Shown: one piece after another, positions 1 through 64,000 of the stretch
Layout of the letters: every line of letters begins with the position of its first letter
Position numbering within the stretch: the stretch's first letter is position 1
Virus record (IMG/VR): IMGVR_UViG_3300045988_175036
Span: 32,001-96,000 of that record
From: a virus
Reading direction: 5' to 3' (one strand)
Length of the DNA: 64,000 bases
Translations under genes and position numbers: made by a program
Notes under the pieces: generated by a model
The model's database searches: none
Seen by the model: only the letters and a program-made list of their open reading frames with translations
What the model was told of the DNA's origin: nothing

Positions 1-3000
1 ATCAATGATTTGACAGTTGGAACTACAGAATGGAAAAATGCACTTCTTGATGTAAATAATCAAGTTTTGGAACTCTTGGATAAGTATCCTCAATTAGCAT
101 CTTATTTGACTTCTGAAAATGGTGTATTAGGAATTTCAGAGGAAGGTATCCAGAAGGCTACAGATATTGCACAAGAGCAAGCACGTAGAGCTCAAGCCTT
201 ATCCGTTACGAGTCAGTATGCTGAAACAACCAATCAGAGAAGAATTGCTCAAAAAGCATATCAACAAAACTTCTGGTCTTATGACCAATATACTGGTAAT
301 GTTATCACAAACCCCGAAGCAGCAAAAGCTTTTTCAAATTATCTCAAAGAAAATCCAGATATGACAGCCGAAGATTTTCAGACTTTGGCTGGAGGCGCAG
401 GGGAAGAACTCTCCAAATTGGCTGATATTACTGGCCTTACTGTCAATCAAATGGCGGATTTAGTAGATATTACTCGTTCTTATAATAAAGATATGGTAGC
501 TTATGGTCTTCAAGAAGAAAATTACCGTAATGCTTTGGGAGTTTTAGCGGGGGATGTTTCTTCTAATAAACGTTGGAGTATGGTCACTCAAATGTTTAAC
601 CTGGATGAGACTGCTTCTGAAATAGACGCCGCGCGTGATAAATTGGATACGACAATTTCTGAAATGGCTCGTGACTTGAAAGATCAAGGTTATACAAGTA
701 TTATGGATTTGACCGGAAGTGACGCCACTTACCGTCAAGTTTATGAAGCCGTTACAGGTCAAAGTTCAGAGGGCGTTGATATTGACAGTATAAAGGATTA
801 TTTAGCTCAATTCCAAGTTTTGAATGGCCAAGTTGAAGAAGCTATTCCAATTCTAAATAAGTTGACATCAATGAAAAATCAAGGCCTAGCTGATGAAATT
901 GCTGGACGAATTGCTGGTGGAACTGGCCTAACGCGAGCTCAAGCAGAAAAACCACTTACAAAAGCTGACTTGCAGGAAATGGCATCTCAAATGGGATATG
1001 CTAATGACGATGAAATGGCAAAAGCTTTTGGATTTGATGATTGGACGGCTCTTTTCAATCAGTGGTCACAGGACGCCGCTTCAATTGCTTCACAGTTTGA
1101 GGAAAAGGAAGCAACTGCTGCTAATGTTATTGGTCAAAATCAAGTAGAAAAAGCAAGCTCTTTGATGGGAGATAAAGACTTCCAAACCTACTCCAAATAT
1201 CTTGAACAATTGGCAACTCTTTATGCTAAAGCGGGGGTAAATGGCGCGCAAGCGGTTGATTTGTTCCAAAGTTCTCTTGAAGCTTTGATTTCTAATAATC
1301 CTCAGTATGAGAAAGAAATCAAAGATATTATTGGAATGACCGACCTTTCTGACTATGACAGTGTCGAAGCAGCAATTTCTGATATAAAAGAACTTATTCC
1401 TGGAGTTGGAGACGAACTCAATAATTTTGAGACAGCTCTTATTCAACTAGGTAAAGCCACTAAAAAAGTCAACTTGAAAACCACAATGTCTGATTTGACT
1501 TCGATGTTAGACTTAGCAGATGAGATTTCTTCCCGCTCTCGTTCCGAAGGCATTACTCAAGACGAACTAGAACAAATTGTATCTAGTGGTGCTGCTGACT
1601 ATTCTGATTTTATGTTTACAGGTCAGGAATTTATTCCAGTGACTTCTACTATGGACGACCTGGCCGAAGCAGTGCGCGCGAACACTCAAGCCGCTATTGA
1701 AAATACTTTAGCGCTTTTGAAGCAAGCAATTAGTGAGGGCGAATATGTTGAAGAAATGTTCAATCAAGAGGAATCTTGGAAAGGGATTTCTGACGAGCAA
1801 AAAAATCGAATTCTAAGCGGAGAAGCTAGTGCGACGCTTGATGCGAATGTAATTCGAGATGTTCTTCAATTAGACAAGAGTGCCTCTACGGAAGAGGTTA
1901 TGTCTAAATATCGCGCCTATATGCCAGATTATTTGAATTTAGCTGATAATCGTTCTCAAGCAGAAAATTATCAGAGTTATATGGACCAGGCAGCCGCTTG
2001 GAACACCGACGCGCAAAATCTCCTTCTACAAGGAAATACAGATGCTCTCGATGATATTGTCAACGCGCGTGAATTGAGTGGAACCGTTGAAAAACTAACG
2101 GATGATTATGAAGCCAATACAGAAAACGGCGAAGCCAACTCTGACATGATGAAAACTCAAGGTGTCAGATATACAGAGAATGAGAAAAAAATAAAAAAAC
2201 TTTGTGAAGGTATTGAAGACGTAAAGGATGCTTTTGATAAAGGAACTGAAGCTTTGGCCAACGGTGAGACTCCTGCTGACGATTATTGGCAAGCTCTTTC
2301 TAAAATTGAGAGTAAAGGCCGCCAAGTCTTTGGTGAGAATTTTACTCAAGATTTCATCCAGCAAAATGCTGATTTGATTTCTCAGCTGACCGAAGGCGGA
2401 GAAGTTGGCGAACAAGCTTTTATTTCCCTTCAACAGAAAATTTCTGAAGCCACTCAGCAAGCAGTTGAAGATTTGACTTATTTTGATACTAATCTCCAGC
2501 AAGTTAGAAGTGCACTTGACGGGTTAGATGGAGTAAAAGCCGAGTTCAAGGTCAATGGCACTGCTGATGTATCTCAATTAGTTCAACAACTAATCCTTGC
2601 TGGTAACACAGCGGCTGAGGCCGCGCGGATTGTTGAGTCTTTGACAGGTTCAACTGTTACTTATACTGTTGATTGGCAGTGGGTTACTCTTCCTACTTCG
2701 TTAGCAATGAGTTCCACTTATGCCGGTCTTGAGAAGGCAGGCGCGAGTGGCGGTTTTACTTCTGTAAAAATTCCTAAAGTTATTCAGGCAGTTGGCACAA
2801 AAAATAATTATAGCGGCTCTGGATACTCCGGTTCTTCTAGCGGAGGCGGCGGAGGAGGAGGAAGTTCTTCTAAAGATACCGTTTGGGAGAATCCTTATGA
2901 TAAGCTTTATAATTTGACGGAGCAAATCAATGAGGCTCTACGTCAGCGCGAAAAACTTGAAAGAGAGTATGACAGAATTCTTGAGCGCAGAGGTTCGACT

Positions 3001-4713
3001 TTCAAAGAACTTCGTGCGAACTACAATGCTCAAGTCAAGTCTCTTGAAGAAGAAATTAAACTCCAAGAGAAACTGCGCGCGGGTCGTAAGGGACAGCTTG
3101 ATGCGATTAGTAATGAAAAATATACGGATAGTGAAGGAAATCGTAAGACGTTCGCGCAGACCGGAGCAACAAAATATGCACGATATGACCAAAGTCTAAA
3201 TCGTATTATTATTGATTGGGATGCTATTGATATGATTACTGATGATGACCTTGGTTCTGCTGTCGAGGCTTATGTCAGTCGGTTAGAAGAACTTCAAGAC
3301 CAATTTGAAACAACAGATGAAACAATTGAAGATATGAAAGATACTCTTGATGAGTTACGCAAAAGTCAAATGTCTGATTATCTTGATTTTGAACAAAGTG
3401 TCTATGACGCTCTTGTAAATGCTCAACAGAAGCTTATTGACGAGTATCAATCTCTATCTGATAGTATTGCTGATTCAAATTCTAAAATTTTGGAAAATCT
3501 TCAAGAAAGTATTGATTTAGAGCGTCAAATTCGAGATAATACAAAAACAGAAGAAGATATCAATGAGAAAGAAGCTCGTTTAGCTTTCTTGCGACGTGAT
3601 ACTTCAAACGCCAACGCTTTAGAAATCAAAAAATTGGAAGAGGAATTGAGCGACGCTAGGGAAGATTATTCTGATAGTTTAGTTGACCAACAGCTTGAAC
3701 GCCTTACTCAACAAAATCAAGATGCACAAGAAGCACGTGAAAAGCAAATTGAACTTATGCAAGCTCAACTTGATTATGCTTCTGAGAATGGCGAATTCTG
3801 GAATAGAGCATATGAATTGATAAATGAAGGCTTCGCGGCAGATGGTTCTCTCAATCAAGCAGCTCAATTATGGGAACTCCTCAAAGCTGATGAAGGCTGG
3901 AATGGTCTAAGCAAATTTGGCCAGCTGAATTGGCAAGAAGAAATTTCTAAGGCGATTATCGCTGCCAGCCAAGGCTATGCTAACTGGAACATGTATAAAG
4001 CTGAACAAGTGGACAAGTCTTTGGTTCTACCAGATGGAACTCTATTGACTTATGATGGGAAGCAATGGAAAGATAGTAATGGCAATGTTTATAATGGAAT
4101 TGATTTTGATTCTAATAAAAATCAATTTACCTATGGTTCGATTGATTATACTACACCACCAACACCAGGAGGGGGCAGTACCGGTTCATCCAGTGGAGCC
4201 GAGAAGAAAGAAATTTCTGTTGGCAGCACATTCAATGCCACTGGTGCTCCTATCTATCCATATCCGGGCGGCTCGGCTCAGCGGCAATATTTTGCTAATG
4301 ACCCTTATTATGTAGCAATTGGTGAATCTGGCGATTATTGGCTTGCTCGTTGGCATGGAGCTTCTTCTGGCTCAACTGGTTGGTTCAAGAAAACAGATGT
4401 AAAAGCATATAGGACTGGTGGCTTAGCTGATTTCACCGGGCCCGCTTGGCTTGATGGAACAAAATCTCATCCAGAATTAGTTCTCAATGCTAAAGATACT
4501 CAAAACTTCCTCATTCTCAGGGATATTTTGAGTTCTGCTGTCAAAAATGCTGGAACTTCAAATAATGGCGGAGATAATTATTATGATATAAACATTTCTG
4601 TTGATGAAATTGCTTCTGATTATGATGTTGACCAACTCGCGCGCCGTGTCAAGGAACAAATTGTAGAAGACAGCATTTATCGTAATGTCAACACAATAAG
4701 TTTTATCAGATAA
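1..4713 (+). CDS. tail tape measure protein (5' end outside window)
   Basis: Frame is open from base 1. Over 1560 aa with a long coiled-coil-like Q/E/A/L-rich body and a G/S linker (GSGYSGSSSGGGGGGGSSS). C-terminal TGPAWLDGTKSHPELVLN-type motif. Followed by Dit/Tal-like genes. Confidence 0.8.
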   Translation: MNDLTVGTTEWKNALLDVNNQVLELLDKYPQLASYLTSENGVLGISEEGIQKATDIAQEQARRAQALSVTSQYAETTNQRRIAQKAYQQNFWSYDQYTGNVITNPEAAKAFSNYLKENPDMTAEDFQTLAGGAGEELSKLADITGLTVNQMADLVDITRSYNKDMVAYGLQEENYRNALGVLAGDVSSNKRWSMVTQMFNLDETASEIDAARDKLDTTISEMARDLKDQGYTSIMDLTGSDATYRQVYEAVTGQSSEGVDIDSIKDYLAQFQVLNGQVEEAIPILNKLTSMKNQGLADEIAGRIAGGTGLTRAQAEKPLTKADLQEMASQMGYANDDEMAKAFGFDDWTALFNQWSQDAASIASQFEEKEATAANVIGQNQVEKASSLMGDKDFQTYSKYLEQLATLYAKAGVNGAQAVDLFQSSLEALISNNPQYEKEIKDIIGMTDLSDYDSVEAAISDIKELIPGVGDELNNFETALIQLGKATKKVNLKTTMSDLTSMLDLADEISSRSRSEGITQDELEQIVSSGAADYSDFMFTGQEFIPVTSTMDDLAEAVRANTQAAIENTLALLKQAISEGEYVEEMFNQEESWKGISDEQKNRILSGEASATLDANVIRDVLQLDKSASTEEVMSKYRAYMPDYLNLADNRSQAENYQSYMDQAAAWNTDAQNLLLQGNTDALDDIVNARELSGTVEKLTDDYEANTENGEANSDMMKTQGVRYTENEKKIKKLCEGIEDVKDAFDKGTEALANGETPADDYWQALSKIESKGRQVFGENFTQDFIQQNADLISQLTEGGEVGEQAFISLQQKISEATQQAVEDLTYFDTNLQQVRSALDGLDGVKAEFKVNGTADVSQLVQQLILAGNTAAEAARIVESLTGSTVTYTVDWQWVTLPTSLAMSSTYAGLEKAGASGGFTSVKIPKVIQAVGTKNNYSGSGYSGSSSGGGGGGGSSSKDTVWENPYDKLYNLTEQINEALRQREKLEREYDRILERRGSTFKELRANYNAQVKSLEEEIKLQEKLRAGRKGQLDAISNEKYTDSEGNRKTFAQTGATKYARYDQSLNRIIIDWDAIDMITDDDLGSAVEAYVSRLEELQDQFETTDETIEDMKDTLDELRKSQMSDYLDFEQSVYDALVNAQQKLIDEYQSLSDSIADSNSKILENLQESIDLERQIRDNTKTEEDINEKEARLAFLRRDTSNANALEIKKLEEELSDAREDYSDSLVDQQLERLTQQNQDAQEAREKQIELMQAQLDYASENGEFWNRAYELINEGFAADGSLNQAAQLWELLKADEGWNGLSKFGQLNWQEEISKAIIAASQGYANWNMYKAEQVDKSLVLPDGTLLTYDGKQWKDSNGNVYNGIDFDSNKNQFTYGSIDYTTPPTPGGGSTGSSSGAEKKEISVGSTFNATGAPIYPYPGGSAQRQYFANDPYYVAIGESGDYWLARWHGASSGSTGWFKKTDVKAYRTGGLADFTGPAWLDGTKSHPELVLNAKDTQNFLILRDILSSAVKNAGTSNNGGDNYYDINISVDEIASDYDVDQLARRVKEQIVEDSIYRNVNTISFIR

Positions 4714-4773: not shown

Positions 4774-5658
4774 ATGGGCGTTTTAGGCGGAGACTTCATT
4801 GGCTTCTCTTTTGATGGTCATCATTCCTCCGACCTTGGGATTATGAGAGTAAGTGATGGAAGCAGGTATGCTGATTACCTGCTTCCCACTTCTCAGGATT
4901 TGACGGTCCAAGTTCCGGGCGGAGATGGAACCTACTATTTTGGTTCGTATGACACATCAAAAGTTTTTTCTATTTCTATTGCCTTTGATAGTCTAAAAGA
5001 AGAACAAATTAGTAATCTCCGAAAGATTTTTGGAGAAAAAAAGATTGGCAAGCTTATATTTGATGAAATGCCATATAAATATTATATGGTAAAAATTACA
5101 GGCCAGCCGCAATTGAAATATATTTGCTTTGGAAAAACTGGGCAAGAACGCATTTATAAAGGCGAAGGTACAATTCAATTTACTGCTTATTATCCTTATG
5201 CCAAGAGCACCGCACTTTTTCTTGGTGCTACTAATCTTACATCACTTGAAAATAAGGACGAATGGGCTGCGGCAAGTCGCTTACCACAAACCGCGCCGAC
5301 TTTGACTGGTAGTTCAATCCCTGTTTATAACGTTGGCGACCTACCAATGGACTGGCGCGCGCGGTATATATTCCCTAATGTCCCAACTGACATTTATATG
5401 GATGGGGTTGGAATGCTAAAATTTTCAGCCATTGCCAAGCAAGGTAGCGATGAATTTATTGAGGTAAATTCAAAAACAAACCTGATAGAAGGTTTGGATA
5501 CAAATGGAGAAAAGACTGGAAATATTTATAATAAATTCATGACCGGCGGAACTTTTTTCAAAATTCCTCCTATGGCAAGTGAGTCAGAGAAAAAGAATTT
5601 TATTTCGGTTGGCACTTCTTCTTGTTGGAAATTACTATACGACTATATCTATTACTAA
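4774..5658 (+). CDS. distal tail protein (Dit-like, siphovirus tail family)
   Basis: GGAGG RBS. N-terminus FSFDGHHSSDLGIMRV resembles phage tail (Dit) proteins. Lies directly after the tape measure. Confidence 0.65.
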   Translation: MGVLGGDFIGFSFDGHHSSDLGIMRVSDGSRYADYLLPTSQDLTVQVPGGDGTYYFGSYDTSKVFSISIAFDSLKEEQISNLRKIFGEKKIGKLIFDEMPYKYYMVKITGQPQLKYICFGKTGQERIYKGEGTIQFTAYYPYAKSTALFLGATNLTSLENKDEWAAASRLPQTAPTLTGSSIPVYNVGDLPMDWRARYIFPNVPTDIYMDGVGMLKFSAIAKQGSDEFIEVNSKTNLIEGLDTNGEKTGNIYNKFMTGGTFFKIPPMASESEKKNFISVGTSSCWKLLYDYIYY

Positions 5659-5668
5659 GGAGGTTTGA

Positions 5669-8600
5669 ATGAAAAAAGATATTTATCAAATCTCTTTATG
5701 GGAAGATTATGTAGTTCCGGCAACTGATACTGTCCCAGAGCATTATGAAGAACAACTTCTAGGCATTATTGGCTCCGATACGATGACAGCAGAATATCGT
5801 GCAACAGAGCCAAAGTTGATTCAAAATATCAACGGAACAAATACTCTTACTTTCAAAGTCTACTATACCTATATTGATACAGAGACCGGAGAGCGTCAAG
5901 ATAATCCTTTTATAAAACTTCTAGTAAACGAACGGAAAGTAAAATGTTTATGGAAAGGACAATGGTATGACTTCGTAATCAAGTCAATTCAAGAAGATAG
6001 CTCTGGTAAATCAATTACTTATACTTGTAAAGACTTATATATAAATGAGTTGAGCAAAACTGGTTTCAACTTAGAATTTGATAATGAGCTTGAGAACAAT
6101 CAAGGAACGGCGCAAGAATTAGGAGCAAAAATATTAGAAGGCACAGACTGGCAAGTAGCGTCTGAAGGACAGGATATTGTTCAACAGACAATTGAAGAAC
6201 CACTTTTTTTAGTCCAAATTCAAACTGCCATTACGGTCTATAAGAGTAATGGAAAAGACACATATGAAATTCCTTCTAGTAAAAAAATACTTGTGCCATA
6301 TTCTGTTACTCAAACTCCTTATCCTCAAATTTTTCAATTCTTCTATGACGAAGATGAAAATTATGCCAAATATCAAGAAGATAATAGTGTTCATCTTACC
6401 GGATTAGATTGTTCATTACTCAAAAATCCAATTTATTCTGTAACAGACGATGGAACTTTTACTCTAAAATTTGGAACCACTACCGTTCTAACAATTCCAA
6501 ACACTCAACCATTATCAGATTGGCGTGCTGATAGACCAATCCGCGCGCCTCTACAAGAGTATAGTTCTCTAGTTGGCAGATATTGTTATGTCTATAAAGG
6601 ATACGCCGGAAAGAAAATTTATAAATATATTACTACAGAATATAACGACCCGACAGTGGTTTTGAATTTAGTTGTCAATAATAAAGAGTTCAAGGACACT
6701 ACAGGTTGGATTGGTGAGGGGATGAGTTGGCAACTTTATCCTCCTTATACAGACATTAGTAATATAGAGTCCTATAGTGCTACTACCTATTTGGGTCTTC
6801 AAGGCGGAAAGACTATCTATAATGCCGGCCTTCAAAAATCTTCCATGTATATTGAAGGTGGGTTTCAGAAAGGCGAAAAATATATTTTCCGCGTGAAGGG
6901 GTATCAGACACTTGGTGGCGCAAAACTAACAACTAATTATCACATAGACCCCAAAGTCTGTTCTCATGATAATAACTTTACTCCATTAGCAACTTCTGAT
7001 GCTAATTATATCAATTACTTTGACGTTGGAACGGCAATTCAAAATGGTGATTGGATTGAGTATCCAATGACTTGCCAGGTTTCAATCCCTCGCTCTAAAA
7101 TTACAACCTCAAATATTGGTTTATTTATTACTCCTGTTGTTAGCTGTTGGATTGAAGAATTTCAATTCTTCAAAGAAGTTTATGGCAAAGATAGTGATGG
7201 CAATTCTACAAGAATAAATCCAGGCGAGATGGATAAAAATAGTGTTGCAACTGAAGTTTATTGCTATTTTGACTCCGCTACAACAGTGCTTGATGAGAAA
7301 GATATAGAATATCTTTGGAAGGCTACCTCTGACTGGTCTGGGAGTAGCGTGCCAGAACCTCAATATTCTATTGACGCAGATGGTAATTATACTTACGAAA
7401 AAATTCGTAGTATTACTGGAAAAAATTCGAATCGTTTCAATCTTTTACAATCTGTTGCCGAGACTTTTGAGTGTTGGGTTCGTTTTGAAATAAAGCATAA
7501 TGAGAATACGGGTAAAATTCTTTATGAAGATGGGAAACCGCAAAAATTTGTTTATTTCAAAAATGAAGTGGGAGAAGAAAACGGATGCGGATTCGTTTAT
7601 GGAATTGACTTAAAAACAATTTCTCGTTCTATCAATTCAGACCAAATCACTTCAAAAGTTGTTGTTGTTCCTAATACCACTCAATATGCAGAAAACGGTG
7701 TGTGTGAAATAGCGCAATCAGAATACAACCCTTGTAAGGAGAACTTCATTCTCAATTTTGATTATTATATAAATCAAGGATTGTTAGATGGTGGAGCAGC
7801 AAATAAAGATTTGTGGCTTTCTTCAGCTTCTGGAGGTCTTGGATATTATCCTTCCCTCAAAGAAAAGAATGAAGAATATTATAAGTCTGTTGAAGAGAAC
7901 GTCGCAAGAAAACTTGAACATGATAAACAGAATTCAACTCTTCAACTTTATCAGCAGTATTTGACTTCGACGACAGAACAGATTACTTCAACGAAGTCTG
8001 ACATCGCTAGATTGGCAGGTCTATTATCATATGATGCCGCGCGAGTTACTAGCTATGTGAAAGAACATCCTGGTTTTGAAAAGCTAGAAACTCTTATTGT
8101 TACTCTAAAAACTTTAGAAGGACAGAAGACAGATTATCAAGGAATCTATGGAAATCTAAAGAAAAGTGTTGACGCTCTTGAAAAAGCAATTGAAGCAGCA
8201 GAAGCCCGACAAACAAAGCTTTTGGAAGAAATAGATACGCTTCATAAAGCCTTTTATGAAAAGTATTCTCGTTTTATTCAAGAAGGTTCCTGGACCTCTC
8301 AAAACTACTTAGATGAGAATCTTTATTATCTGGATGCAAAGTCTGTAGCTTATACAAGCGCGCGCCCTCAAATTTCGTATAATATTTCTGTTCTAAGATT
8401 GAGCGCACTTGATGAATTCAAGAACAAAGTTTTTAGAATTGGTGATATAAGCTATATTGAAGACACTGAATTTTTTGGATATACTTATATTGCCACCGAA
8501 AGTGGAAAAGTAAGAAGTCCTTATCGTGAGAAAGTTCTAATTAGTGAAATCACTTCTAACTTTGATAGCCCCGAAAAAGATAGCTTCAAAGTTCAAAATT

Positions 8601-48294: not shown

Positions 48295-48296
48295 AT

Positions 48297-54751: not shown

Positions 54752-54785
54752 ATTTATACAAAATGGTTGAGGAAAGGAAAAAGAA

Positions 54786-55973: not shown

Positions 55974-56053
55974 TCAAAGATAAAATTATCTTTTCTACAC
56001 GGAGAAACTATTGATTCCGAAAACTATCCAATACAAATTGAAAGGAAATTTTT

Positions 56054-56314
56054 ATGGAAAAGATTTTTGAACTCTGTAAAGAGCGTGATATCAGGTGTTA
56101 TTTCAGTTATTGGAAGCTCGACGATTCTATTCATTTTGCTTTCACTAGAACATTTGCTGGCCAAGATTGTAAATTTATACAGGTCGTTCCGATCAAGGAT
56201 ATTAATAATAATTCTCATGTTATCGGACAGTACATTGCAGAACTTATTGAAGACAAGCTGTCGGATGAGAATTGTAGAAAAATGATTCTCGACAGAATTG
56301 AAAAGCTTCTTTGA
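56054..56314 (+). CDS. hypothetical protein (86 aa) inside the RNA island
   Basis: ATG follows AAAGGAAA. Protein-like composition. Sits between two cloverleaves. Confidence 0.45.
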   Translation: MEKIFELCKERDIRCYFSYWKLDDSIHFAFTRTFAGQDCKFIQVVPIKDINNNSHVIGQYIAELIEDKLSDENCRKMILDRIEKLL

Positions 56315-56387
56315 AATCTATTTTTATAATAAGAAAAATAGGTACACTACTTCTTTTATGTTTCGTAGTAGCTGGATTTATAAATAT

Positions 56388-56463
56388 CCTCTATTGGTGT
56401 AATGGTAGCACACTTCCCGTCAAGGAAGAGGGGTCGGTTCGATTCGATATCCTGCATAGAGGA
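56388..56463 (+). tRNA. aberrant tRNA-Asp-like cloverleaf (GUC in a 6 or 8 nt loop, irregular T arm)
   Basis: Acceptor CCTCTAT/ATAGAGG, D arm GTGT-AATGGTA-GCAC, CTTCC-CGTCAA-GGAAG. The T region GTCG-GTTCGATT-CGAT has 7 extra nt before the acceptor 3' strand. Confidence 0.35.
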
Positions 56464-56650
56464 CGGCTTGACACAGCCGGAGTGTTATCTCTGGCATACG
56501 GATTAGCGTATGCAAAGCATTTGTCTTCGGATGGTAAAATGCGAGAGAAGTCATCCCCTTGAACTTCTCACTACATACATCCCCAGCGGTTGTTATGCTG
56601 AGACCGATGGCGCGACGGTCGTTTATAATATCGCGCCATTTGTCTAAAAT
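56464..56650 (+). ncRNA. hairpin-rich spacer C
   Basis: Hairpins CGGCT/AGCCG, GCATACG/CGTATGC, GAGAAGT/ACTTCTC and ATGGCGCGA/TCGCGCCAT. No credible ORF. Confidence 0.35.
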
Positions 56651-56686
56651 GCGGGTGTAGTATAATGGTTATTATGTCTGCCTTCC

Positions 56687-57150
56687 TTCTAAACTTAATG
56701 CGTTAGATATATATGGAGCAATTATCAACTCAATTTAAAGGCGATGTGACTGAACTTTTAGTTAGTGCATATTTACTAAAATTAGGTTATGTAGTATCTA
56801 AACCTTTAACCCAAGATAGTAAATATGATTTAATTGTAGATATTAACCATAAGTTAATTCGTATTCAGGTTAAAACTGCAAGACTAAATGATCGGACCAT
56901 TGGCAAAAGTATTAAGTTTAATTGTAGAAGTACCACAAACAATGTAAGAGAATGCAAACAGCGATATTATTCGCCAGAAGATGTAGATTATTTTGCAACA
57001 TATTGGGATAATGTAGTATATTTAATCCCAGTTACTGAATGTAGTGCTGAGAAAATTTTATGGATAGATAAGCCTACATATAAAAACAGTTGTTTTGCAA
57101 ATGATTATCTGGCAGAGGAGGTATTACAACGCATTTAAGCATTGGAAGGG
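56687..57150 (+). mobile_element. 464 nt endonuclease-carrying intervening sequence in the tRNA-Gly anticodon loop
   Basis: Inserted after C36. Only 26 nt upstream and 12 nt downstream are outside the ORF and its stop codon. The ends pair: CCTTCC (56681-86) with GGAAGG (57144-49), and CTTAATGCGTT (56694-704) with AACGCATTTAAG (57128-39). Confidence 0.7.
56713..57138 (+). CDS. PD-(D/E)XK homing endonuclease (I-Ssp6803I-like)
   Basis: GDVTELLVSAYLLKLGYVVSKPLTQDSKYDLIVD...IRIQVKT matches the E...G..V..P...YDLIVD...QVK pattern of the tRNA-intron endonuclease family (from memory). Located inside a tRNA anticodon loop. Confidence 0.65.
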   Translation: MEQLSTQFKGDVTELLVSAYLLKLGYVVSKPLTQDSKYDLIVDINHKLIRIQVKTARLNDRTIGKSIKFNCRSTTNNVRECKQRYYSPEDVDYFATYWDNVVYLIPVTECSAEKILWIDKPTYKNSCFANDYLAEEVLQRI

Positions 57151-57273
57151 AAGCAGAAGATGGGGCTTCGATTGCCCTCACTCGCTCCACCGCCCCATGG
57201 GAAGTTTGCCTCCAATAAGTCTCATGACCACTACTAGATTGCACTAGTTGACTGAATAAAGGTGGTTTTATAT

Positions 57274-57350
57274 GCACTTGTAGCTCAGTTGGTAGTAGCA
57301 ATTGCCTTTTAAGCAATGGGTCGGGCATTCGAGTTGCCCCAAGTGCACCA
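57274..57350 (+). tRNA. tRNA-Lys (TTT)
   Basis: GCACTTG/CAAGTGC acceptor, ATTGC-CTTTTAA-GCAAT anticodon arm, GGGCA-TTCGAGT-TGCCC T arm, A-CCA end. Confidence 0.9.
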
Positions 57351-57430
57351 CTTTATTTGGAATCAATAGCTTGTCCACCTTTGGGCGACCCGTAATAGCC
57401 GGACATTTGAAAATTTCTTCTCGTAAATGT

Positions 57431-57459
57431 TTGAAATTTTTCTGATTTTTTGATATAAT
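57431..57459 (+). promoter_or_regulatory. promoter (TTGAAA-N17-TGaTATAAT, followed by ATTTACAGAAA box)
   Basis: -35 at 57431-57436, -10 at 57454-57459. Confidence 0.65.
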
Positions 57460-57485
57460 ATTTACAGAAAGTGAGGGAAACGAAA

Positions 57486-57662
57486 ATGGAAACTGAAACT
57501 CCGTGGAAGCCCGAAGTAAAGAAAATGTCTCCCGAACAACTTGAGAAGTGGACGGCGCTCCGTAAAAAGTGTCAAGTCTTTCCTTCTCGAAAACCATATT
57601 CGCGCAAAATCAAACATAAAAATCGAGAAAAAGAAAAAGAAAAAGAAGAAAACGAAATTTGA
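57486..57662 (+). CDS. small basic hypothetical protein (58 aa)
   Basis: ATG 57486 follows GTGAGGGAAA. K/R/E-rich C-terminus. Confidence 0.45.
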   Translation: METETPWKPEVKKMSPEQLEKWTALRKKCQVFPSRKPYSRKIKHKNREKEKEKEENEI

Positions 57663-57687
57663 AAAACTTCTAAAATTTTGGTATAAT
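57659..57687 (+). promoter_or_regulatory. promoter (TTGAAA-N17-TGgTATAAT, followed by ATTTATACAAG box)
   Basis: -35 at 57659-57664, -10 at 57682-57687. No protein gene for about 1.6 kb downstream. Confidence 0.65.
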
Positions 57688-57704
57688 ATTTATACAAGAT
57701 GAGA

Positions 57705-57746
57705 GAGAGAGGAACTGGTCTTTTCCTTTCTACCAGTTCCTCTCTC
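57705..57746 (+). other. 15 bp perfect hairpin at the 5' end of the promoter-proximal RNA
   Basis: GAGAGAGGAACTGGT (57705-19) pairs with ACCAGTTCCTCTCTC (57732-46). No T-run follows, so it is not a terminator. Confidence 0.7.
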
Positions 57747-57778
57747 AGAAAGTCCTAATGTGGCTTACTTGAAAACTA

Positions 57779-57852
57779 TCCGATGTAGTTCAACTGGTTA
57801 GAACACCGCATTGATAAAGCGGAGCTGTCGGTTTGAGATCCGGCCTTCGGGT
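57779..57852 (+). tRNA. probable tRNA-Ile (GAT) with 8 nt T loop and mismatches
   Basis: Acceptor TCCGATG/CTTCGGG (6/7 paired), D arm GTTC-AACTGGTTA-GAAC, CCGCA-TTGATAA-AGCGG (A-A at 31:39), T arm GTCGG-TTTGAGAT-CCGGC. No CCA encoded. Confidence 0.5.
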
Positions 57853-58248
57853 AGTTGGTAAGCAGTCCCAAGCCTGCATAAACACAGAGGGAGACTAATA
57901 GCGGTATTACAGTGGCCAATGTAATATCCAAAATTTCGAGACAGGCAAGTCTTCAGGCAGTAGATGTCTGATAAAACAACGACGGCGAAGGAGTCGCGAC
58001 CTTCGGAGGAGCCGAGATAAACCTACGGGGAACCGCCATCGGAGAAAAGGAATTTATTAGTCAAATCAGTTTCGTGGTTCTGGGACTCAAAACCACCTCG
58101 CGCAGTTCTTACGGCGCAATATAAATAGGATGGGCGCTATCTGACATGGCGTGACGTTCAGAAGTTTCGATGCGTGGGCTTACCTATAAAACTCATGCTG
58201 GGTCTTTGGAGCCTTTTACCTCCTGTGTGAAACAAAAGGCTCGTATAT
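57853..58248 (+). ncRNA. large structured RNA candidate D (~400 nt)
   Basis: ORF-free and GC-enriched. Contains the GTGGTT/AACCAC hairpin. Bounded by the Ile-like tRNA and tRNA-Leu, in the transcription unit of the 57659 promoter. Confidence 0.45.
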
Positions 58249-58334
58249 GCAAGTGTGGTGGAAATGGCATACACATCTGATTCAAGCTCAGATGCCCACT
58301 GGGATTAAGGGTTCGACTCCCTTCACTTGTACCA
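58249..58334 (+). tRNA. tRNA-Leu (CAA), type II
   Basis: GCAAGTG/CACTTGT acceptor, 3 bp D stem, TCTGA-TTCAAGC-TCAGA anticodon arm, extra arm CCC-ACT-GGG, T arm AAGGG-TTCGACT-CCCTT, A-CCA end. Confidence 0.85.
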
Positions 58335-59282
58335 GAAATTCGTGTCCCGCTAAGCTCTATAATGATTGTGGCGAGGCTAAGGCGTTGGCAGATAAGGGGC
58401 AACCGCACGAATTAGAATATTGCGCAGGTCGTCTAACAGTAGGACGCCAGACTCATTATCTGGAGACAACGTGCAACTCGTTCGTGCGCAACCATTCGCT
58501 TTGGCGAAACTCTCGTAGAGGATGGATTTTACGGTTCAACTACCACCGGCTTCCGAGCCCGACCGCTATGGCTGACAACGAAGATATGTGGCTTTGTCAT
58601 TTGCCGAGAGTATAATAAATAAAAACGAAAGCAAACCGTTTATTTGTTCCTTGAAAATAAAATATCTTAGAACTCGATGACAAACATTCTGTGACTAGGA
58701 ATGTCGAGGCGTTTTGAAAAGGGCGGCAGACAACGAACAAGGATACTTGTGGATACTGACCGGTGCGCGTGACGTGAGTTGCGTGCCAGAGAGGATGGAC
58801 TCCCAACCCTAAGAGGCGGCATCGAGATTAACGCGAGTAAAGGTAGGACGCGCGTCGCTGGCGTAATAGAGGCTTTCAAGATAATTGAGAGCTGAATCCT
58901 AATCTCCCTTAGTTGGTGACTGTGGGTAAATCATTTGATTAGGAAATAACCACAAGCCAGTTTGTTGTGAAGCGAAGAAATTCGTGTATAAGACGTGTAT
59001 GTGGCCTCTGAGTAGCCAAAGACAAGCACAATAATGATTATTGATAATAAAAATCAAGAACTTGCTGAATGGCTGGTGAAAGGTTCTGGTAATCAATCCA
59101 GAAGAGACTACGCGCACGAAGGTGCGGCTATGGGAAGTATGCGCGGGACGCTGCGTATGCTCAGCCCCATGGTGCTCTTGACTGAATATACTTGAAGTTA
59201 GTTTTCGGTAGGTTGAAGAACCCATAGATATTTTATTTTCAGGGAACAAATCCCTTTTGACGGAAAGGAACGTCAAAATTTT
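58335..59282 (+). ncRNA. large structured RNA candidate E (~950 nt, possibly two RNAs)
   Basis: Only short overlapping ORFs without an RBS, and about 50 percent GC by eye. Helices: AATTCGTG (58337-44)/CACGAATT (58406-13), TTCGC-TTTG-GCGAA, CGCAC-GAAG-GTGCG. Ends with hairpins AGGGA/TCCCT and TTGACG/CGTCAA plus a T-run. Confidence 0.5.
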
Positions 59283-59861: not shown

Positions 59862-59933
59862 TTTATCAAGATTATTTGGCGCGCGACTACTTAGGGATAG
59901 AAAGAAAAATATATCCCAGAAAAGGAGAATAGA

Positions 59934-60572
59934 ATGAAGAAAAATGAAGATATCGGACTACTACCGCTAGTCCAAATTCCAGAAAGCGCGAATTATTCAC
60001 TTCCCGACGATAATCTCCTGTCGTTCTACAATGATTTGGAAGAACGATTACTTTGGGTAACAGATGGAATTGATAGCTGTTCCTTGAATATTATTCATTA
60101 TATTTTGAAGTGGAATCGTGAAGATAAGGGGATTGAGCTTTCCGCGCGAAAGCCTATTCGTCTTCTCATTTTTAGCCCCGGTGGAGAGCTTGATGTTTTT
60201 ACTGCCATCGGCAATATTATTCGCCTTTCAAAAACTCCTGTTATTGGTATCAATATTTCGTGCGCTTATAGTGCCGCGGCGATGATACTTTTAATGTGTC
60301 ATAAGAGATATGCTTTGAGCAGTGATGTTTCTGTTCTTTTCCATCAAGGAAGTTGTTCCGGCATTCAGGGAACTTATGATCAGATTGCTAATTTTATGAA
60401 AGAATATGATGAGCAAGTTTCTCGTCTTTCTCAGGTTATTCTCGATAGAACTTCATTTACAAAAGAAGAAGTAGATGAAAAGATGAAGAGCGATTGGTAT
60501 GTATCCGCGCGCGAAGGCGTTGAACGCGGCGTATATGATGGTATTATTTCTTCTATCGATGAATTGATTTGA
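59934..60572 (+). CDS. clpP: ClpP-family serine protease
   Basis: LLIFSPGGELDVFTAIGNII, SCAYSAAAMILL and VLFHQGS match the ClpP Ser/His blocks. Confidence 0.8.
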   Translation: MKKNEDIGLLPLVQIPESANYSLPDDNLLSFYNDLEERLLWVTDGIDSCSLNIIHYILKWNREDKGIELSARKPIRLLIFSPGGELDVFTAIGNIIRLSKTPVIGINISCAYSAAAMILLMCHKRYALSSDVSVLFHQGSCSGIQGTYDQIANFMKEYDEQVSRLSQVILDRTSFTKEEVDEKMKSDWYVSAREGVERGVYDGIISSIDELI

Positions 60573-60582: not shown

Positions 60583-61401
60583 ATGGATTATACTGGCATT
60601 AGGGATTTGAAGCTAAATTCAGAGGAATTAGCTCAATTTTATCAAGGTGACTATCCAATTCGAGACTTATTAGAGAATCAATATGTTTTTATCAGAGACG
60701 AAACTGATAAGATAGCTGATAAGTTCTTTTGGCGCGCGGGGCACTTAGAAAGAGTTCCGTTTCTTACAATCAAAAATGATTTCTGTGGCACTATTAAGCC
60801 GCGCAATCCATATCAAGAATGCGCGATACATATGTTGAATGATAGAAAAGCGCCAGTAAAAGTTTTTACGTCTGTTTATGGTGGAGGCAAAGACTTCTTG
60901 ATGTCCGCGCAGGCTCTCTCTCTAATCGAAAAAGGAGTTTTTGAAAAGCTCGTTTATATTCGTCCAAATGTTTCATTAGGAGATATCCCAGATATTGGAT
61001 ATTTGAAGGGCGATGAGTTTGCGAAATTGAGCTGGACACTGGCTCCACTTTGGGATAAGTTTGGTGGTCGAGAAACGGTTGAAGAAATGTGCCAAAATAA
61101 CCAGATTGAACTTGTTCCATTACCGCATATTCGTGGTCGCTCATTCAATAATGCACTTGTTTATGTAAGTGAGGCGCAAAACATTACAAGAGAAATCGCA
61201 CGCCTTATCATTTCTCGTATTGGTGAGAACAGCGAAATTTGGTATAATGGAGATTATCGCCAGGTTGATAGACGAATGTATGATGCAGATAACGGTTTGC
61301 GCGCGACTATTGACAGTTTGGCAGGTAATTCTCTTTTTGAAATGGTTTATTCTCCTGTTACAGAGCGCTCCATGGTTGCACGATTGGCGGAAATAATTTG
61401 A
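60583..61401 (+). CDS. phoH: PhoH-like protein with degenerate Walker A
   Basis: KPRNPYQECAIHML, GYLKGDEFAKL, HIRGRSFNNALVYVSEAQN and NGDYRQVD. The P-loop reads YGGGKD instead of GTGKT. Confidence 0.8.
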   Translation: MDYTGIRDLKLNSEELAQFYQGDYPIRDLLENQYVFIRDETDKIADKFFWRAGHLERVPFLTIKNDFCGTIKPRNPYQECAIHMLNDRKAPVKVFTSVYGGGKDFLMSAQALSLIEKGVFEKLVYIRPNVSLGDIPDIGYLKGDEFAKLSWTLAPLWDKFGGRETVEEMCQNNQIELVPLPHIRGRSFNNALVYVSEAQNITREIARLIISRIGENSEIWYNGDYRQVDRRMYDADNGLRATIDSLAGNSLFEMVYSPVTERSMVARLAEII

Positions 61402-61488: not shown

Positions 61489-63171
61489 ATGGCATATCAA
61501 TCTGTCTATTGGAAAAAATATGATAGGTCAAAGATGTTTTCTCAAATGGATGTCTTTTATAATTATCTTGGAGAAGACCCCGCGCGGCCTTCACTGGCAG
61601 TTTTGAAAGGAATGGCAGAAGACAGTTTCAATCGCCACTTGAATCAGATAAGAGAAATCTCAAAAAATGTTGAACCTTACAGGCGTATTGCTGAGACAGA
61701 AAAGGAAAAGGAATTAGCTCTTTTGCGCGAGGTATTTGGGCAAGACCTTCATATAAATCTTCAAGACCAAAATGATGTAAAGTCGTTGATTGAGGCATTG
61801 AACAGTGTTTTGAATATAAAAGATGTATATAATAGGAATGTTCGAACTTTGGAGCTTTCTAAGGGTGGTATGAAAAGCGTTGTATCTTTCTTCCCAACCT
61901 ATTTTCTCCAAGTTTGGAATGAACAGTGGGAAGACATCTATTTAGCGACTTGTGACATGTTCGCGCGAGGAAAAATTACATTGGAAGATGCCTTGAAAAA
62001 AGAGGTCAATAAAAGAATTGATAATATGACAATTGAAGCAATAGAGAGAATGTTGTCCGCGCGAGCTGAGATGAAGGATATGCGCGAAGACGATAAATAT
62101 AATAAAGCTTACCAAGAATTACTTGACGCAATTAGGGCTCTTCCAAGGTATAGAAATGAAATCATCGAAAGAATTCGTTCAATTTATCAGCTAGACAAGC
62201 TAAGCGACAGTATTACAGAGCAAATCAAAGGGGAAGGGCATATAACAAAGAAACAAATAGAAAAGAAACTAAAAAATTCTGCTAAAAAACCAGTTGAAAT
62301 TCAATCAGCTTCGCGCGGAGGATTGACTTTAGAGGCTATTGAGAAAATGGTTTTCAATATGATTGGAGACAAAATAGAAGCCAATGGTGGAATGGCTAGA
62401 ACCATTCATACTGGTAAGATTGGTAATATGAAAGCAGATAATATTATGACAATCGGTCTTGCTCCTTCCATCATTGATGAATGGATTGATGACATTATGG
62501 AGATTTCTGGTTCATCGCGTGCAGATAATATAGAAAGAATTCGACGTCTTGGAGAATTGACACAAAATGCAGATAAAGGTTTTATAATCTATTCTAGTGA
62601 TAAAAATTATACTTTGAATCAAAGGTTTCGTGAGCAATTTGGTTTTTCTGCCGGATCGGCACTGTCCGCTCAATCATTCTATGATGTCACGCGCAATGTA
62701 AATAAGAACGCGCGCACTTTTACTGGTTTATTGGTCAATACAATTGGCGGAGCTATAATGGATACCGAAGGAACACGTGACCGCTTAGCAGAGATTATTG
62801 CAGAGGACATTGCTGTAATGCTTTTTGATGATTATCAGACAATTGGTGATTTTAGAGGGAAAGTAGGAGCTAGTGCTATTCATATAATGAATTTAGGTAA
62901 TATAATGATACCACTTTCCGTCTTTTTGACGATGTTTGCTAATGCAGTCGAGCAAGCGGAGAGTGAACCTTCTGATTTTGTGAAGGTCGCAATTATGACA
63001 CCTGAAATTGAATTCAAAACATATTCAGAGCAACTGGAATGGCAGGCTAGGAATGAGGCGACTTCTAGTGAAGCTTGGAGCTTCCAGCGGGAGCAAACTT
63101 TACAAAAGATTCGTATTTCGGTTCGTTTCTTCCGAGAATTCCGTTCTTTCATCACCACGCTCGGTCAATAA
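61489..63171 (+). CDS. hypothetical protein (560 aa)
   Basis: Long ORF with RBS GGAGTGAG. No motif recognised. Confidence 0.6.
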   Translation: MAYQSVYWKKYDRSKMFSQMDVFYNYLGEDPARPSLAVLKGMAEDSFNRHLNQIREISKNVEPYRRIAETEKEKELALLREVFGQDLHINLQDQNDVKSLIEALNSVLNIKDVYNRNVRTLELSKGGMKSVVSFFPTYFLQVWNEQWEDIYLATCDMFARGKITLEDALKKEVNKRIDNMTIEAIERMLSARAEMKDMREDDKYNKAYQELLDAIRALPRYRNEIIERIRSIYQLDKLSDSITEQIKGEGHITKKQIEKKLKNSAKKPVEIQSASRGGLTLEAIEKMVFNMIGDKIEANGGMARTIHTGKIGNMKADNIMTIGLAPSIIDEWIDDIMEISGSSRADNIERIRRLGELTQNADKGFIIYSSDKNYTLNQRFREQFGFSAGSALSAQSFYDVTRNVNKNARTFTGLLVNTIGGAIMDTEGTRDRLAEIIAEDIAVMLFDDYQTIGDFRGKVGASAIHIMNLGNIMIPLSVFLTMFANAVEQAESEPSDFVKVAIMTPEIEFKTYSEQLEWQARNEATSSEAWSFQREQTLQKIRISVRFFREFRSFITTLGQ

Positions 63172-63233: not shown

Positions 63234-63887
63234 ATGAAGCCTTCTTTTGAATTGGTTGCCTCTATTATTGATGAGCTTATTGAAGATACTGATTATGGTA
63301 ACATTTATGATTATGTTTTCGACGGTGCTAGTGATATTAGTTGTTGGCTTTACGAGGTAGAGAACTATACTCATTTTGAGATGGCACACGGTTATACAAA
63401 AATTGTCATTGAAAGCGATAGATTAGGTGATTGGGTTTTGAAAATTCCCATCATCAGGAAAAGAAAAGATTTTTGCGCAATCGAGGTTGCTAATTATAAA
63501 GCCGCCTGTGAGGCTGGACTTGAGAGATTTTTTGCTCCTACTTTTTTCTTTGCTGAAATTTCAAATATTCCAGTTTATATTCAGAAAAAAGTTTATTGCT
63601 GCGAAGGCGATGTTAGTGATAACTTCTATGATTGGACTGCACGACAGATGGAAGAAAGTCGCTACGAGTATGATACCGATGATGAATTTGATGATGCCGT
63701 TTATGAAGAGGCTTCTAATCTAACCACCCAGAGTTCTTTGCGCGCGATGTTTGAAGAAACAAATGACCTTGAAGACATTGATAAGCTTTATTGTTTTTGT
63801 AATAAATTTCATATCAACGACCTTCATTCTGGAAATTACGGTTTTGATAACGGCCGCGCGGTTATTATAGATTTCTCTGGTTTCTAA
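63234..63887 (+). CDS. putative protein-kinase-like fold protein
   Basis: WVLKIPI (VAIK-like Lys), INDLHSGNYGF (catalytic-loop-like D..N) and VIIDFSGF (DFG-like). Confidence 0.4.
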   Translation: MKPSFELVASIIDELIEDTDYGNIYDYVFDGASDISCWLYEVENYTHFEMAHGYTKIVIESDRLGDWVLKIPIIRKRKDFCAIEVANYKAACEAGLERFFAPTFFFAEISNIPVYIQKKVYCCEGDVSDNFYDWTARQMEESRYEYDTDDEFDDAVYEEASNLTTQSSLRAMFEETNDLEDIDKLYCFCNKFHINDLHSGNYGFDNGRAVIIDFSGF

Positions 63888-63957: not shown

Positions 63958-64000
63958 ATGAAAGTAAGAAAAGTGATTATTGCTTTGATACTTTCTTTTC
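63958..64000 (+). CDS. start of a membrane/secreted protein (truncated by window end)
   Basis: ATG follows AAGGAGG. MKVRKVIIALILSF is hydrophobic. Confidence 0.4.
   Translation, partial: MKVRKVIIALILSF

Follow-up and report, generated by a model that had tools for sequence, protein, structure and literature searches.

Alternating C/G palindromes in an AT-rich phage genome: a candidate highly iterated palindrome of a viral lineage

Introduction

Phages are expected to purge short palindromes from their genomes; how, then, does one come to be filled with them? The question is raised by a 64,000-nt stretch of viral DNA (positions 32,001 to 96,000 of the IMG/VR record IMGVR_UViG_3300045988_175036; hereafter the window), which purges TTAA, GATC and GTAC about 3- to 9-fold and enriches short runs of alternating C and G 13- to 22-fold. 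These runs are tentatively read here as a "highly iterated palindrome" (HIP) specific to a phage lineage, with GCGC/CGCG as its core, a usual length of 5-7 nt, a fixation bias in its favor and a presumed sequence reader, a reading that is quite possible, if short of probable.

The window has a GC content of 37.8% and belongs to a phage genome of ∼117-120 kb, the close relatives measuring 115-121 kb. That the sequence comes from a phage, as an initial annotation made from the letters alone had supposed, is borne out by ROOL and drum RNAs, tRNAs, SPbeta-type DnaE, RecJ and DnaB, and tail genes. The GenBank phage collection held no near-identical DNA match to the window, and an exact-match look-up of its ribonucleotide reductase protein found none on record. 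Genes were called by a simple longest-ORF (open reading frame) rule.

Abundance of the runs

Scanned directly, the window contains exactly 90 maximal runs in which C and G alternate over 6 nt or more, the number that had been estimated by eye: 42 of 6 nt, 34 of 7, 13 of 8 and one of 9. The example coordinates given with that estimate were 1-4 nt off, the actual positions being 5355-5363, 40699-40706, 44131-44138 and 48211-48218. The 90 runs lie at the following positions.

Runs 1-12: 630-635, 1244-1249, 1674-1680, 2064-2069, 2622-2627, 3075-3081, 4638-4644, 5355-5363, 6542-6548, 8038-8043, 8358-8365, 8743-8749
Runs 13-24: 9851-9857, 9971-9977, 11015-11020, 11228-11235, 11669-11674, 14090-14095, 15675-15681, 15972-15977, 17479-17486, 17523-17528, 18739-18745, 19833-19838
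Runs 25-36: 21001-21007, 21136-21141, 21301-21306, 22710-22715, 23403-23408, 24933-24938, 25259-25264, 25820-25825, 27373-27380, 30971-30976, 31164-31169, 31363-31369
Runs 37-48: 31609-31614, 31978-31984, 32477-32482, 33015-33022, 33668-33674, 34254-34259, 34481-34486, 35228-35233, 36955-36960, 38514-38520, 38748-38753, 38797-38802
Runs 49-60: 39378-39383, 40082-40088, 40677-40683, 40699-40706, 41560-41565, 41671-41677, 42459-42464, 42622-42629, 42940-42946, 43172-43179, 43502-43508, 44131-44138
Runs 61-72: 44570-44577, 44598-44603, 45506-45512, 45562-45567, 46477-46484, 47493-47499, 47970-47976, 48211-48218, 49140-49146, 50420-50426, 51151-51156, 51170-51176
Runs 73-84: 51843-51849, 53430-53435, 53630-53636, 53761-53767, 54322-54328, 58849-58854, 59879-59885, 60143-60148, 60506-60513, 60732-60738, 61299-61305, 61581-61586
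Runs 85-90: 61962-61967, 62058-62063, 62312-62317, 62709-62715, 63740-63746, 63855-63860

With the threshold at 5 nt the runs number 189, one per 336 nt, on both strands and both inside and between genes. CGCGCG occurs 87 times (1.36/kb) against 2.9 copies expected under the Markov model M0 or 4.0 under M1, an observed/expected ratio (o/e) of 22 on M1, and GCGCGC occurs 66 times (1.03/kb) against 5.2 expected (M1 o/e 13). They are the two most over-represented hexamers of the window, which bears out the first impression of strong over-representation. The companion statement that other G/C hexamers are rare holds for those with GG or CC steps and fails for those with a CGC or GCG core, such as CGCGCC (34 copies) and CCGCGC (31). 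The equally G/C-only words GGCC, CCGG and GGGCCC show no enrichment in the window. The M1 o/e rises with length, from 1.5 for CGC/GCG to 3.4 for CGCG and 2.9 for GCGC, ∼7.8 for the pentamers and 13-22 for the hexamers; 7- and 8-mers do not exceed order-5/6 Markov expectation, and the enrichment is seated at the 3- to 6-mer level.

Could the runs be a by-product that serves no target at all? Codon and dinucleotide preferences, together with avoidance of TCGA, ACGT and CCGG, would then funnel CpG into GCGC and CGCG. The window does avoid TTAA, GATC, GTAC, CATG, TGCA and TCGA very strongly, and the contexts TCGA, ACGT, TCGG and ACGG are depleted where GCGC is enriched. Moreover, the strictest shuffle, which preserves protein (and with it the dipeptides), codon usage and every dinucleotide, absorbs 42 of the 85 coding runs of at least 6 nt (42.3±4.1, maximum 56 in 500 shuffles). 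It nevertheless leaves a 2-fold excess (z ∼10), and the milder nulls leave more: shuffling synonymous codons within genes gives 19.6±3.8 coding runs (maximum 31 in 1000 shuffles), and permuting codons gives fewer still, with 6.4±2.7 copies of CGCGCG versus 82 observed. Against codon-aware expectation the alternating C/G words are enriched at z 12-17. Codon-preserving shuffles had been proposed at the outset as a way to challenge the motif, and all three codon-aware nulls fall short of the count. Also at odds with a by-product are the 5- to 7-mers, enriched far beyond the tetramers, the shift in protein composition itself (next section) and the presence of the enrichment in relatives whether or not they avoid TTAA or CCGG. 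As a full account this explanation is very unlikely; the dipeptide shift lies wholly outside it, and of the runs it covers half at best.

Codon choice and protein composition

How far does the bias reach into the proteins? Alanine is encoded by GCG in 58 of 99 cases before arginine and in 206 of 1057 cases otherwise (59% vs 19%; odds ratio (OR) 5.8, p 7e-16), which confirms that codon choice depends on context, as had been suspected. Ala-Arg (AR) and Arg-Ala (RA) pairs are mostly encoded as GCG-CGN and CGC-GCG, and at 1.87 and 1.71 times the per-protein expectation, respectively, they are the two most over-represented dipeptides in the proteome. By comparison, SPbeta has AR/RA values of 0.72/0.81, the putative host 0.92/1.18 and a non-enriched sublineage 1.14/1.05. 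When the window's AR/RA dipeptides are traced in that sublineage, only about one in five is the same pair there. The bias recodes Ala/Arg codon pairs and nearly doubles the Ala-Arg and Arg-Ala dipeptides.

Any in-frame triplet within an alternating run is necessarily GCG or CGC. The seven runs first cited as lying in the sense frame as Ala-Arg or Arg-Ala all do so; as a class, the runs are not limited to one phase, the three codon phases holding 34/15/33 copies of CGCGCG and 22/22/18 of GCGCGC. Between genes the tetramers are enriched as well (o/e ∼2.5-2.7). The use of all phases, the intergenic runs and the context-dependent codons show that the pressure acts on DNA, and to this extent the early claim of selection at the nucleic-acid level stands.

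Anatomy, spacing and orientation

What does a typical run look like? The probability of extending the alternation by one base is 0.18, 0.26, 0.37 and 0.57 at lengths of 1-4 nt, and 0.48, 0.53, 0.29 and 0.07 at 5-8 nt, with a significant fall at 7-8 nt (14/48, then 1/14); the excess of length counts over a geometric background peaks at 5 nt. In the flanks a 5′ A and a 3′ T are disfavored, without any extended consensus. The spacing of the runs of at least 5 nt is Poisson (coefficient of variation 1.0), and GCGCG and CGCGC occur 173 and 169 times, with a small regional bias no larger than GC skew predicts. Two features need to be placed here.

5355-5363, the longest run (GCGCGCGCG) and the sole one of 9 nt, inside the Sipho_tail gene 4774-5658
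42940-42959, a triple cluster close to the minimum of cumulative GC skew, in the AT-rich divergent intergenic region that separates the minus-strand replication genes from the plus-strand early genes

The triple cluster, noticed already at first reading, has the form GCGCGCG-T-CGCGC-CT-GCGCG. The 332-nt intergenic stretch that holds it is only 32% GC, yet contains 14 CGCG/GCGC, and the cluster shares sequence with the spacer and −35 region of a promoter-like TATAAT that points leftward (assigned by eye). The region 42879-43217 also carries a tandem ATTTGAAAAA in two copies, a 13-nt direct repeat AAATCAAATTTCT in two copies and a promoter-like TTGAAA-17-TATAAT, and a small unlisted ORF at ∼43062-43217 has, by eye, the look of a ribbon-helix-helix regulator. 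This region may be an origin and early control region.

Local hairpin pairing of runs was considered and rejected, as short spacings are not in excess. Slippage of the kind seen in dinucleotide microsatellites, which is also a variant of the by-product explanation, is ruled out by the lack of indels at runs (0 gap openings in 3510 aligned nt of close relatives vs 79 in 145170 elsewhere), by the length ceiling and by gains and losses that are driven by substitution.

A structural role can be pictured as well: the tracts would be prone to form Z-DNA, as had been suggested, or would act as GC clamps against supercoiling-driven melting in an AT-rich genome replicated with a phage gyrase. The alternation of purine and pyrimidine, the encoded GyrA and GyrB and the cluster in the AT-rich putative origin/promoter region are what such a role would lead one to look for. 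Runs that stop at 8-9 nt, longer ones being disfavored, are not, since 8-9 nt is too short for a B-to-Z transition at physiological superhelicity; nor is the lack of enrichment of GGCC, CCGG and GGGCCC, and GyrA is also present in the non-enriched relative L012. With a maximum of 9 nt, and with neither a Z-alpha family nor a PDB match pointing to a Z-alpha-like reader among the proteins searched, Z-DNA is unlikely, and a structural role in general is highly improbable.

Relatives and lineage specificity

Is the motif a peculiarity of one genome or the property of a lineage? The comparison set comprised 57 DnaE-centered loci, drawn from IMG/VR and one usable contig of a metagenome-assembled genome (MAG), a second MAG match being only a 2-kb fragment; the relatives cannot be counted as independent samples. 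CGCG/GCGC o/e of 2-3.9 and many hexamers are found in most of about 55 relatives, and the enrichment is the same whether tail-side or far-side loci of a genome are taken. Six loci, whose DnaE is 46-61% identical, are low: their o/e is 1.1-1.5, and each hexamer occurs 0-6 times. Contigs without the enrichment include 3300029305_006521, 3300029305_012181, 3300021399_000207 and 3300035499_000343. SPbeta and Enterococcus phage VRE9_3, which have the same type of replication module, show CGCG o/e of 0.20 and 0.37 and zero hexamers.

The preferred phase also differs within the lineage. In group B (L004, L005, L015, L016, L024-26, L073-L087) and group C2, maximal 6-nt runs are GCGCGC rather than CGCGCG by ∼6:1 and CpG is depleted (rho 0.77-0.89); groups A and C use both phases at ∼1:1, and the window's group has no CpG depletion. 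A preference for GCGCGC- or CGCGCG-type runs that varies by sublineage is what would be expected of a reader with evolving specificity. Where AR/RA dipeptides are conserved, the run state is retained (OR ∼3), even at 40-55% protein identity with near-saturated synonymous sites.

Attempts to tie the enrichment to a gene or a shared host gave little. The dCMP deaminase, the phrog_6721 protein, RuvC and dUTPase were its top correlates and were set aside, being confounded by phylogeny and locus coverage and having exceptions. Avoidance of TTAA or CCGG, tried as a proxy for a shared host, does not track enrichment, and a GyrB-based scan intended to widen the contrast recovered none of the low-enrichment contigs.

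As a separate observation on these loci, the DnaE match extends over 4.9-5.9 kb rather than 4.0 kb in many relatives (L022, L024-L026, L029, L034, L039, L040, L042, L044 and others), which suggests an intervening intein, intron or homing-endonuclease insertion in the polymerase gene.

Gain and conservation of sites

How do sites arise? The comparison took in eight relatives, 93-98% identical in DNA, and an outgroup at 85%. Gains and losses proceed by substitution, and 38 of 42 gains are T>C/A>G transitions. At third positions, A/T-to-G/C (W>S) transitions that create CGCG/GCGC account for 31/93, compared with 544/3952 elsewhere (OR 3.1, p 2e-6), motif-creating changes being ∼2.4 times as frequent as equivalent changes elsewhere. 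Against the closest, 98%-identical relatives, third-position G/C shows the same frequency of differences whether or not it lies in a run of 5 nt or more; against more distant relatives it differs less inside runs than outside them (14/127 vs 396/1867), and the same holds for the 85%-identical relative (31/110 vs 735/1721, p 0.003). Taken from the alignments, this pattern indicates a fixation bias that favors the motif and works through point substitutions.

Long-resident and recently acquired DNA

Are all parts of the genome equally affected? Most core genes of the window carry a 2-8x motif enrichment, and the following segments do not.

28993-30970, minus strand, a motif-free stretch with 0 CGCG and 0 GCGC that covers an accessory cassette of three ORFs (29170-30770)
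19976-20925, minus strand, a motif-free accessory cassette with an NPPF methyltransferase-like ORF and a weak PD-(D/E)XK-like ORF, 0 CGCG/GCGC
52356-52991, minus strand, a GIY-YIG/NUMOD1 homing-endonuclease gene (Pfam matches) with 15 CpG and 0 CGCG/GCGC
54329-58848, plus strand, the RNA-island gap, with drum RNA, tRNAs and small ORFs including a PD-(D/E)XK_5 endonuclease (56713-57138)

Two of these gaps had been seen at the start, and the scan reproduces both: CGCG is absent from 28982-30970, and no run of at least 6 nt lies between 54329 and 58848. Within the latter the ORFs at 55938-57138 have 0 CGCG/GCGC, and the 5-nt runs of the island sit within RNA stems. The cassette at 29.4-30.8 kb had been called a methylase/nuclease cassette; an NPPF amino-methyltransferase-like ORF is indeed present, and the nuclease part was not confirmed. 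One ORF of the cassette (29170-30770) has the NPPF methyltransferase motif, with DNA-methyltransferase matches to phrog_799/5172, and its families occur in 6-8 of about 57 loci; being itself without the CG motif, this accessory cassette is not the cause of that motif. The cassette at 19976-20925 has a counterpart in only 2-3 related loci.

In all, nine accessory or mobile ORFs (4.2 kb), namely those of the two methyltransferase-like cassettes, the GIY-YIG homing endonuclease and the tRNA-island ORFs, hold 0 CGCG/GCGC versus ∼4.5 expected on M1 even if nothing were enriched. With core genes enriched and accessory ORFs motif-free, the signal marks long-resident DNA, and it offers a practical marker to tell such DNA from recently acquired cassettes within these genomes.

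The nuclease-type ORFs deserve a remark of their own. They comprise a GIY-YIG protein with a long N-terminal domain (48285-49223), the GIY-YIG/NUMOD1 homing endonuclease listed above, the PD-(D/E)XK_5 ORF at 56713-57138 and a weak PD-(D/E)XK_11 ORF at 20506-20925. The CG motif is missing from the free-standing ones, and the GIY-YIG fusion at 48285-49223 has core-level density.

The putative host

Does the phage simply mirror its host? Close relatives carry an island of 54-64% GC beside the lysin gene (L095 13800-17200; L108 10111-11839), with alleles that differ among relatives and with tail-fibre-like genes (CBM_5_12, Y_phosphatase3). The Y_phosphatase3-domain gene is taken as encoding a receptor-binding protein because of its place among these genes. 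Over 1730 nt its DNA identity is 90.4% to a gene found in bacterial contigs of 200-600 kb and 63-65% GC, where that gene belongs to a prophage-like element of ∼15 kb (terminase, portal, capsid, amidase, holin); a neighboring protein in those contigs is named as Oscillospiraceae bacterium. By this trail of sequence matches, the host of the window's own subgroup is probably an Oscillospiraceae bacterium of 63-65% GC. The mismatch of ∼25 GC points with a phage clade of 38% GC would be unusually large.

In 14 kb of flanking chromosome (RimM, TrmD, KsgA, YabP, DivIC; 63% GC), the M1 o/e is 0.82 for CGCG, 0.92 for GCGC and 1.0 for both hexamers, and flank and prophage-like element together range over 0.75-1.0. 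Set against its transition neighbors and scaled to base composition, the motif has an odds ratio of 3-5 in phage DNA; the host and prophage-like element give 1.0-1.4, and SPbeta gives 0.2-1.0. The initial annotation had pointed out that the same enrichment in the host would reduce the motif to amelioration; the putative host DNA lacks it, and host amelioration is therefore rejected, provided that the Oscillospiraceae bacterium is the host.

Other routes to the host were less productive. A prophage search with DnaE gave only two mis-binned MAG contigs, and the lysin route led to unrelated temperate phages of 58% GC. The phage lysin, with CHAP and PG_binding_1 domains (relative L095 17217-18044), is 63% identical to lysins of ∼42-kb temperate phages (L100-L107) of 54-59% GC, which carry AcrIC5-like genes and serine recombinases and are further phages of high-GC gut Firmicutes. 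In the putative host GATC has an o/e of 1.07, i.e., it is not avoided; a GATC restriction-modification system in that bacterium would fit this.

A subtler dependence on the host is conceivable, in which an AT-rich phage enriches a motif that is frequent in its 63-65% GC host in order to match the density of a host-read GC-rich signal, such as Chi for AddAB; a Chi-like role had indeed been proposed. Firmicute Chi sites contain GCG, that of L. lactis and Streptococcus being GCGCGTG (PMC5959072), and abundant Chi is possible in phages (PMC12315714). The density of alternating CG in the phage is 32-47% of the host's, compared with only 7-13% for CCGG and GGCC, and the motif/neighbor ratios of the phage (1.8-3.2) are numerically near those of the host (1.7-2.5). 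The proposal fails, however, on orientation (173:169), on clustering, with Poisson spacing and none at the termini, and on host statistics, since GCGCG shows neither over-representation (M1 o/e 0.95) nor skew (GCGCG:CGCGC 91:95) in a 12.9-kb piece of host chromosome, as far as a small sample of a putative host can tell. GCGCGTG itself occurs only 6+6 times, and the lactococcal, B. subtilis and S. aureus Chi sequences, tried in turn, have neither excess nor orientation bias in the window. The phage also has its own recombination genes (AAA_24, RecJ-like, RuvC), which known Chi-rich phages do not, and the enrichment extends to relatives with different restriction-avoidance profiles and so probably different hosts. 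Density matching to a host signal is unlikely.

Proposed mechanism and its rivals

What, then, would maintain the motif? Runs are built by single substitutions, mostly T>C/A>G changes beside an existing CG or GC, and the bias acts on all long-resident phage DNA and has spared recently acquired mobile cassettes. Under the favored reading of a lineage-specific HIP, this bias would amount to selection, or to a fixation bias that resembles it, in favor of a short palindrome that serves as a recognition element. The reader may be particular to the lineage: a factor encoded by the phage itself, or one of the host with importance for AT-rich DNA alone. Sites would contribute independently and without orientation, and the ceiling of 8-9 nt may come from protein-coding cost and perhaps from the instability of longer (CG)n. 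If a reader protein is the cause, the runs would be a new kind of genome-wide viral cis element and a handle on an abundant group of uncultured gut phages.

A bolder and doubtful version takes the (CG)2.5-4 tracts as the recognition element of an undescribed virus-specific system, in which a lineage-encoded factor reads ∼3 sites per kb over the resident genome. Possible uses are the loading of replication, recombination or compaction machinery, or the marking of the phage's own DNA against competing DNA and against incoming mobile elements, in which the tracts are missing. Were this true, it would be the first highly iterated palindrome of a virus rather than of a host, with a specificity that has diverged between sublineages. 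Among the candidate readers, no informative PDB match came up for small winged-helix/helix-turn-helix proteins or for the GIY-YIG fusion protein; for the phrog_6721 protein the PDB offered no match, and its AlphaFold model was unusable (pLDDT 38).

The main rival, somewhat unlikely in our judgment, is a ratchet of methylation-linked biased repair on the HIP or Dcm/Vsr model. A GCGC/CGCG C5-methyltransferase would mark sites, deamination of 5-methylcytosine would mutate them, and repair, either T:G-specific of the very-short-patch type or methyl-directed, would restore them and convert near-misses, leaving the runs as a functionless by-product. GCGC and CGCG cores are classic Type II methyltransferase targets, the predominance of T>C/A>G among the gains is of the right kind, and the joint rise of site-creating and site-destroying changes (the latter described below) is what deamination with over-correcting repair would produce. 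The accumulation only in long-resident DNA and a density of ∼1-3 per kb, matching HIPs, fit too, and the phase preferences of the sublineages resemble alternate HIPs that track methyltransferase specificity (PMC4390886). What this ratchet would need is an enzyme, and the C5-methyltransferase motif (PCQ) was not found in ∼104 of ∼117 kb, i.e., the window and ∼40 kb more (segments L064, L097, L062, L095, L117, L121 and L137), nor was there a Vsr family match among the window proteins scanned with Pfam. The idea of a modification target, voiced early on, thus finds no support as phage-encoded cytosine methylation, only two accessory, motif-free NPPF amino-methyltransferase-like ORFs having turned up. 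Host enzymes fare no better, given the odds ratios of only 1.0-1.4 in host and prophage-like element versus 3-5 in the phage. The transition neighbors GTGC, GCAC, TGCG and CGCA are not depleted (0.92-1.18), and the sites are conserved over longer divergence rather than hypermutable. Should the ratchet be the cause after all, the window would provide unusually clear evidence of such a process reshaping a viral genome and proteome, with a bearing on the origin of HIPs.

Several points weigh against the favored reading of a selected or selection-like element. Over the shortest divergence compared, third-position S>W transitions that destroy a site are elevated (47/169 vs 333/1789, OR 1.7, p 0.006) and recent losses (72) exceed gains (42), a pattern that a hypermutable methylated site with biased repair would give as well; polarization rests on a single outgroup at 15% divergence, and sequence alone cannot split selection from biased repair. 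The Poisson spacing of the sites shows no sign that even coverage is selected for. Beyond phylogeny, the presence or absence of genes among the 57 DnaE loci did not tell enriched relatives from the others, and no Z-alpha or other CG-specific binder was found among the window proteins searched. Finally, the host link depends on one exchanged receptor-binding gene and applies only to the window's subgroup.

Gene content of the window

The remaining content of the window is that of a large phage, with modules for the tail, SPbeta-type replication and nucleotide metabolism and an RNA island. DnaE is 38% identical to YorL, and the other replication genes encode a RecJ-like exonuclease, DnaB, a Toprim primase-like protein, an AAA_24 protein, GyrA and GyrB. 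The AAA_24 protein occupies the Sak4-like slot of the SPbeta and VRE9_3 modules and aligns with that Sak4-like protein. Further enzymes are an RNase H, a UvrD-like helicase, an ATP-dependent ligase and RuvC.

Nucleotide-metabolism genes lie at 17309-23861 and 45353-46914 and include a dCMP deaminase, a two-domain dUTPase and a ribonucleotide reductase with a TSCPD domain; the same regions hold a weak dNMP-kinase-like ORF and a GT2 glycosyltransferase, and no thymidylate synthase was recognized in the set. The set might help an AT-rich phage in a GC-rich host to turn dC into dT, or it might act in DNA modification. The phrog_6721 protein (19138-19986) is conserved and has no assigned function.

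55115-59242, the RNA island, with drum RNA at 55115-55242 and a full-length ROOL RNA at 58649-59242 (286 bits)

The island encodes at least five tRNAs (Ile-TAT, Asn-GTT, Lys-TTT, Ile-GAT, Leu-CAA), with further Rfam tRNA matches at 57779 and 58422. The A/U-rich codons that they decode fit an AT-rich phage in a GC-rich host.

The o/e values of the avoided palindromes in the window are 0.12 for TTAA, 0.11 for GATC, 0.39 for GTAC, 0.43 for CATG, 0.46 for TGCA and 0.53 for TCGA; TTGA and TCAA, one-mutation neighbors of an avoided palindrome, are in excess.

Comparison with known systems

How does the motif compare with what is already known? GCGC, CGCG and GCGCGC match Type II specificities, and the runs belong to the same class of 4-6 bp, Type II-like palindromes as the targets of restriction-site avoidance, which the window itself displays for TTAA, GATC and GTAC. 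The sign, however, is the opposite: 3- to 22-fold enrichment here, where SPbeta and VRE9_3 deplete CGCG to 0.2-0.4.

Chi offers another parallel, as a short G/C-rich motif that can be over-represented in phages and that has, in Firmicutes, a GCG(CG) core. Chi is asymmetric, oriented, placed near one end and both enriched and skewed in the host, none of which applies to the window motif; the known Chi-rich phages show an orientation bias of 20:3 or 32:0, have no recombination module and carry their sites clustered near one end (PMC12315714).

The uptake sequences of Neisseria and Haemophilus (DNA uptake sequences (DUS) and uptake signal sequences (USS)) are likewise "self" words at ∼1 per kb in coding DNA, maintained at some cost to protein. 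They are 9-12 nt long, non-palindromic, spread chromosome-wide in the host and tied to competence, whereas the window motif is viral and palindromic.

In E. coli, Dcm/Vsr very-short-patch repair leaves CCWGG over-represented and its T-containing neighbors depleted. A transition-driven gain of targets through T:G to C:G correction would be common to both cases. Here the neighbors are not depleted, the scans described above found neither a C5-methyltransferase motif nor Vsr, and the Dcm/Vsr bias is much smaller in magnitude than the enrichment in the window.

The closest counterparts are the HIPs of cyanobacteria. HIP1 spreads by point substitution and lies within genes in any phase. According to one account (Elhai 2015, PMC4390886), HIP1 is GCGATCGC, with lineage-specific alternates GGCGCC, GCSGC and RCCGGY, the density is ∼0.5-2.5 per kb and the function is debated between selection and biased repair. 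The window motif shares the short, G/C-rich palindromic nature, the gross over-representation and the density, as well as the dispersal in coding DNA in any phase and between genes; like HIPs, it is not a mobile repeat with conserved flanks. It differs in being a variable alternating tract of 4-8 nt rather than a fixed octamer, in shifting dipeptide composition measurably, and in its carrier, a virus whose putative host has no such signal; nor does the ∼89% of the phage genome scanned reveal a cognate methyltransferase. Because HIPs go with such an enzyme and with residence in a cellular genome, and the runs show neither, the motif is filed as a HIP-like variant rather than as a member of the HIPs.

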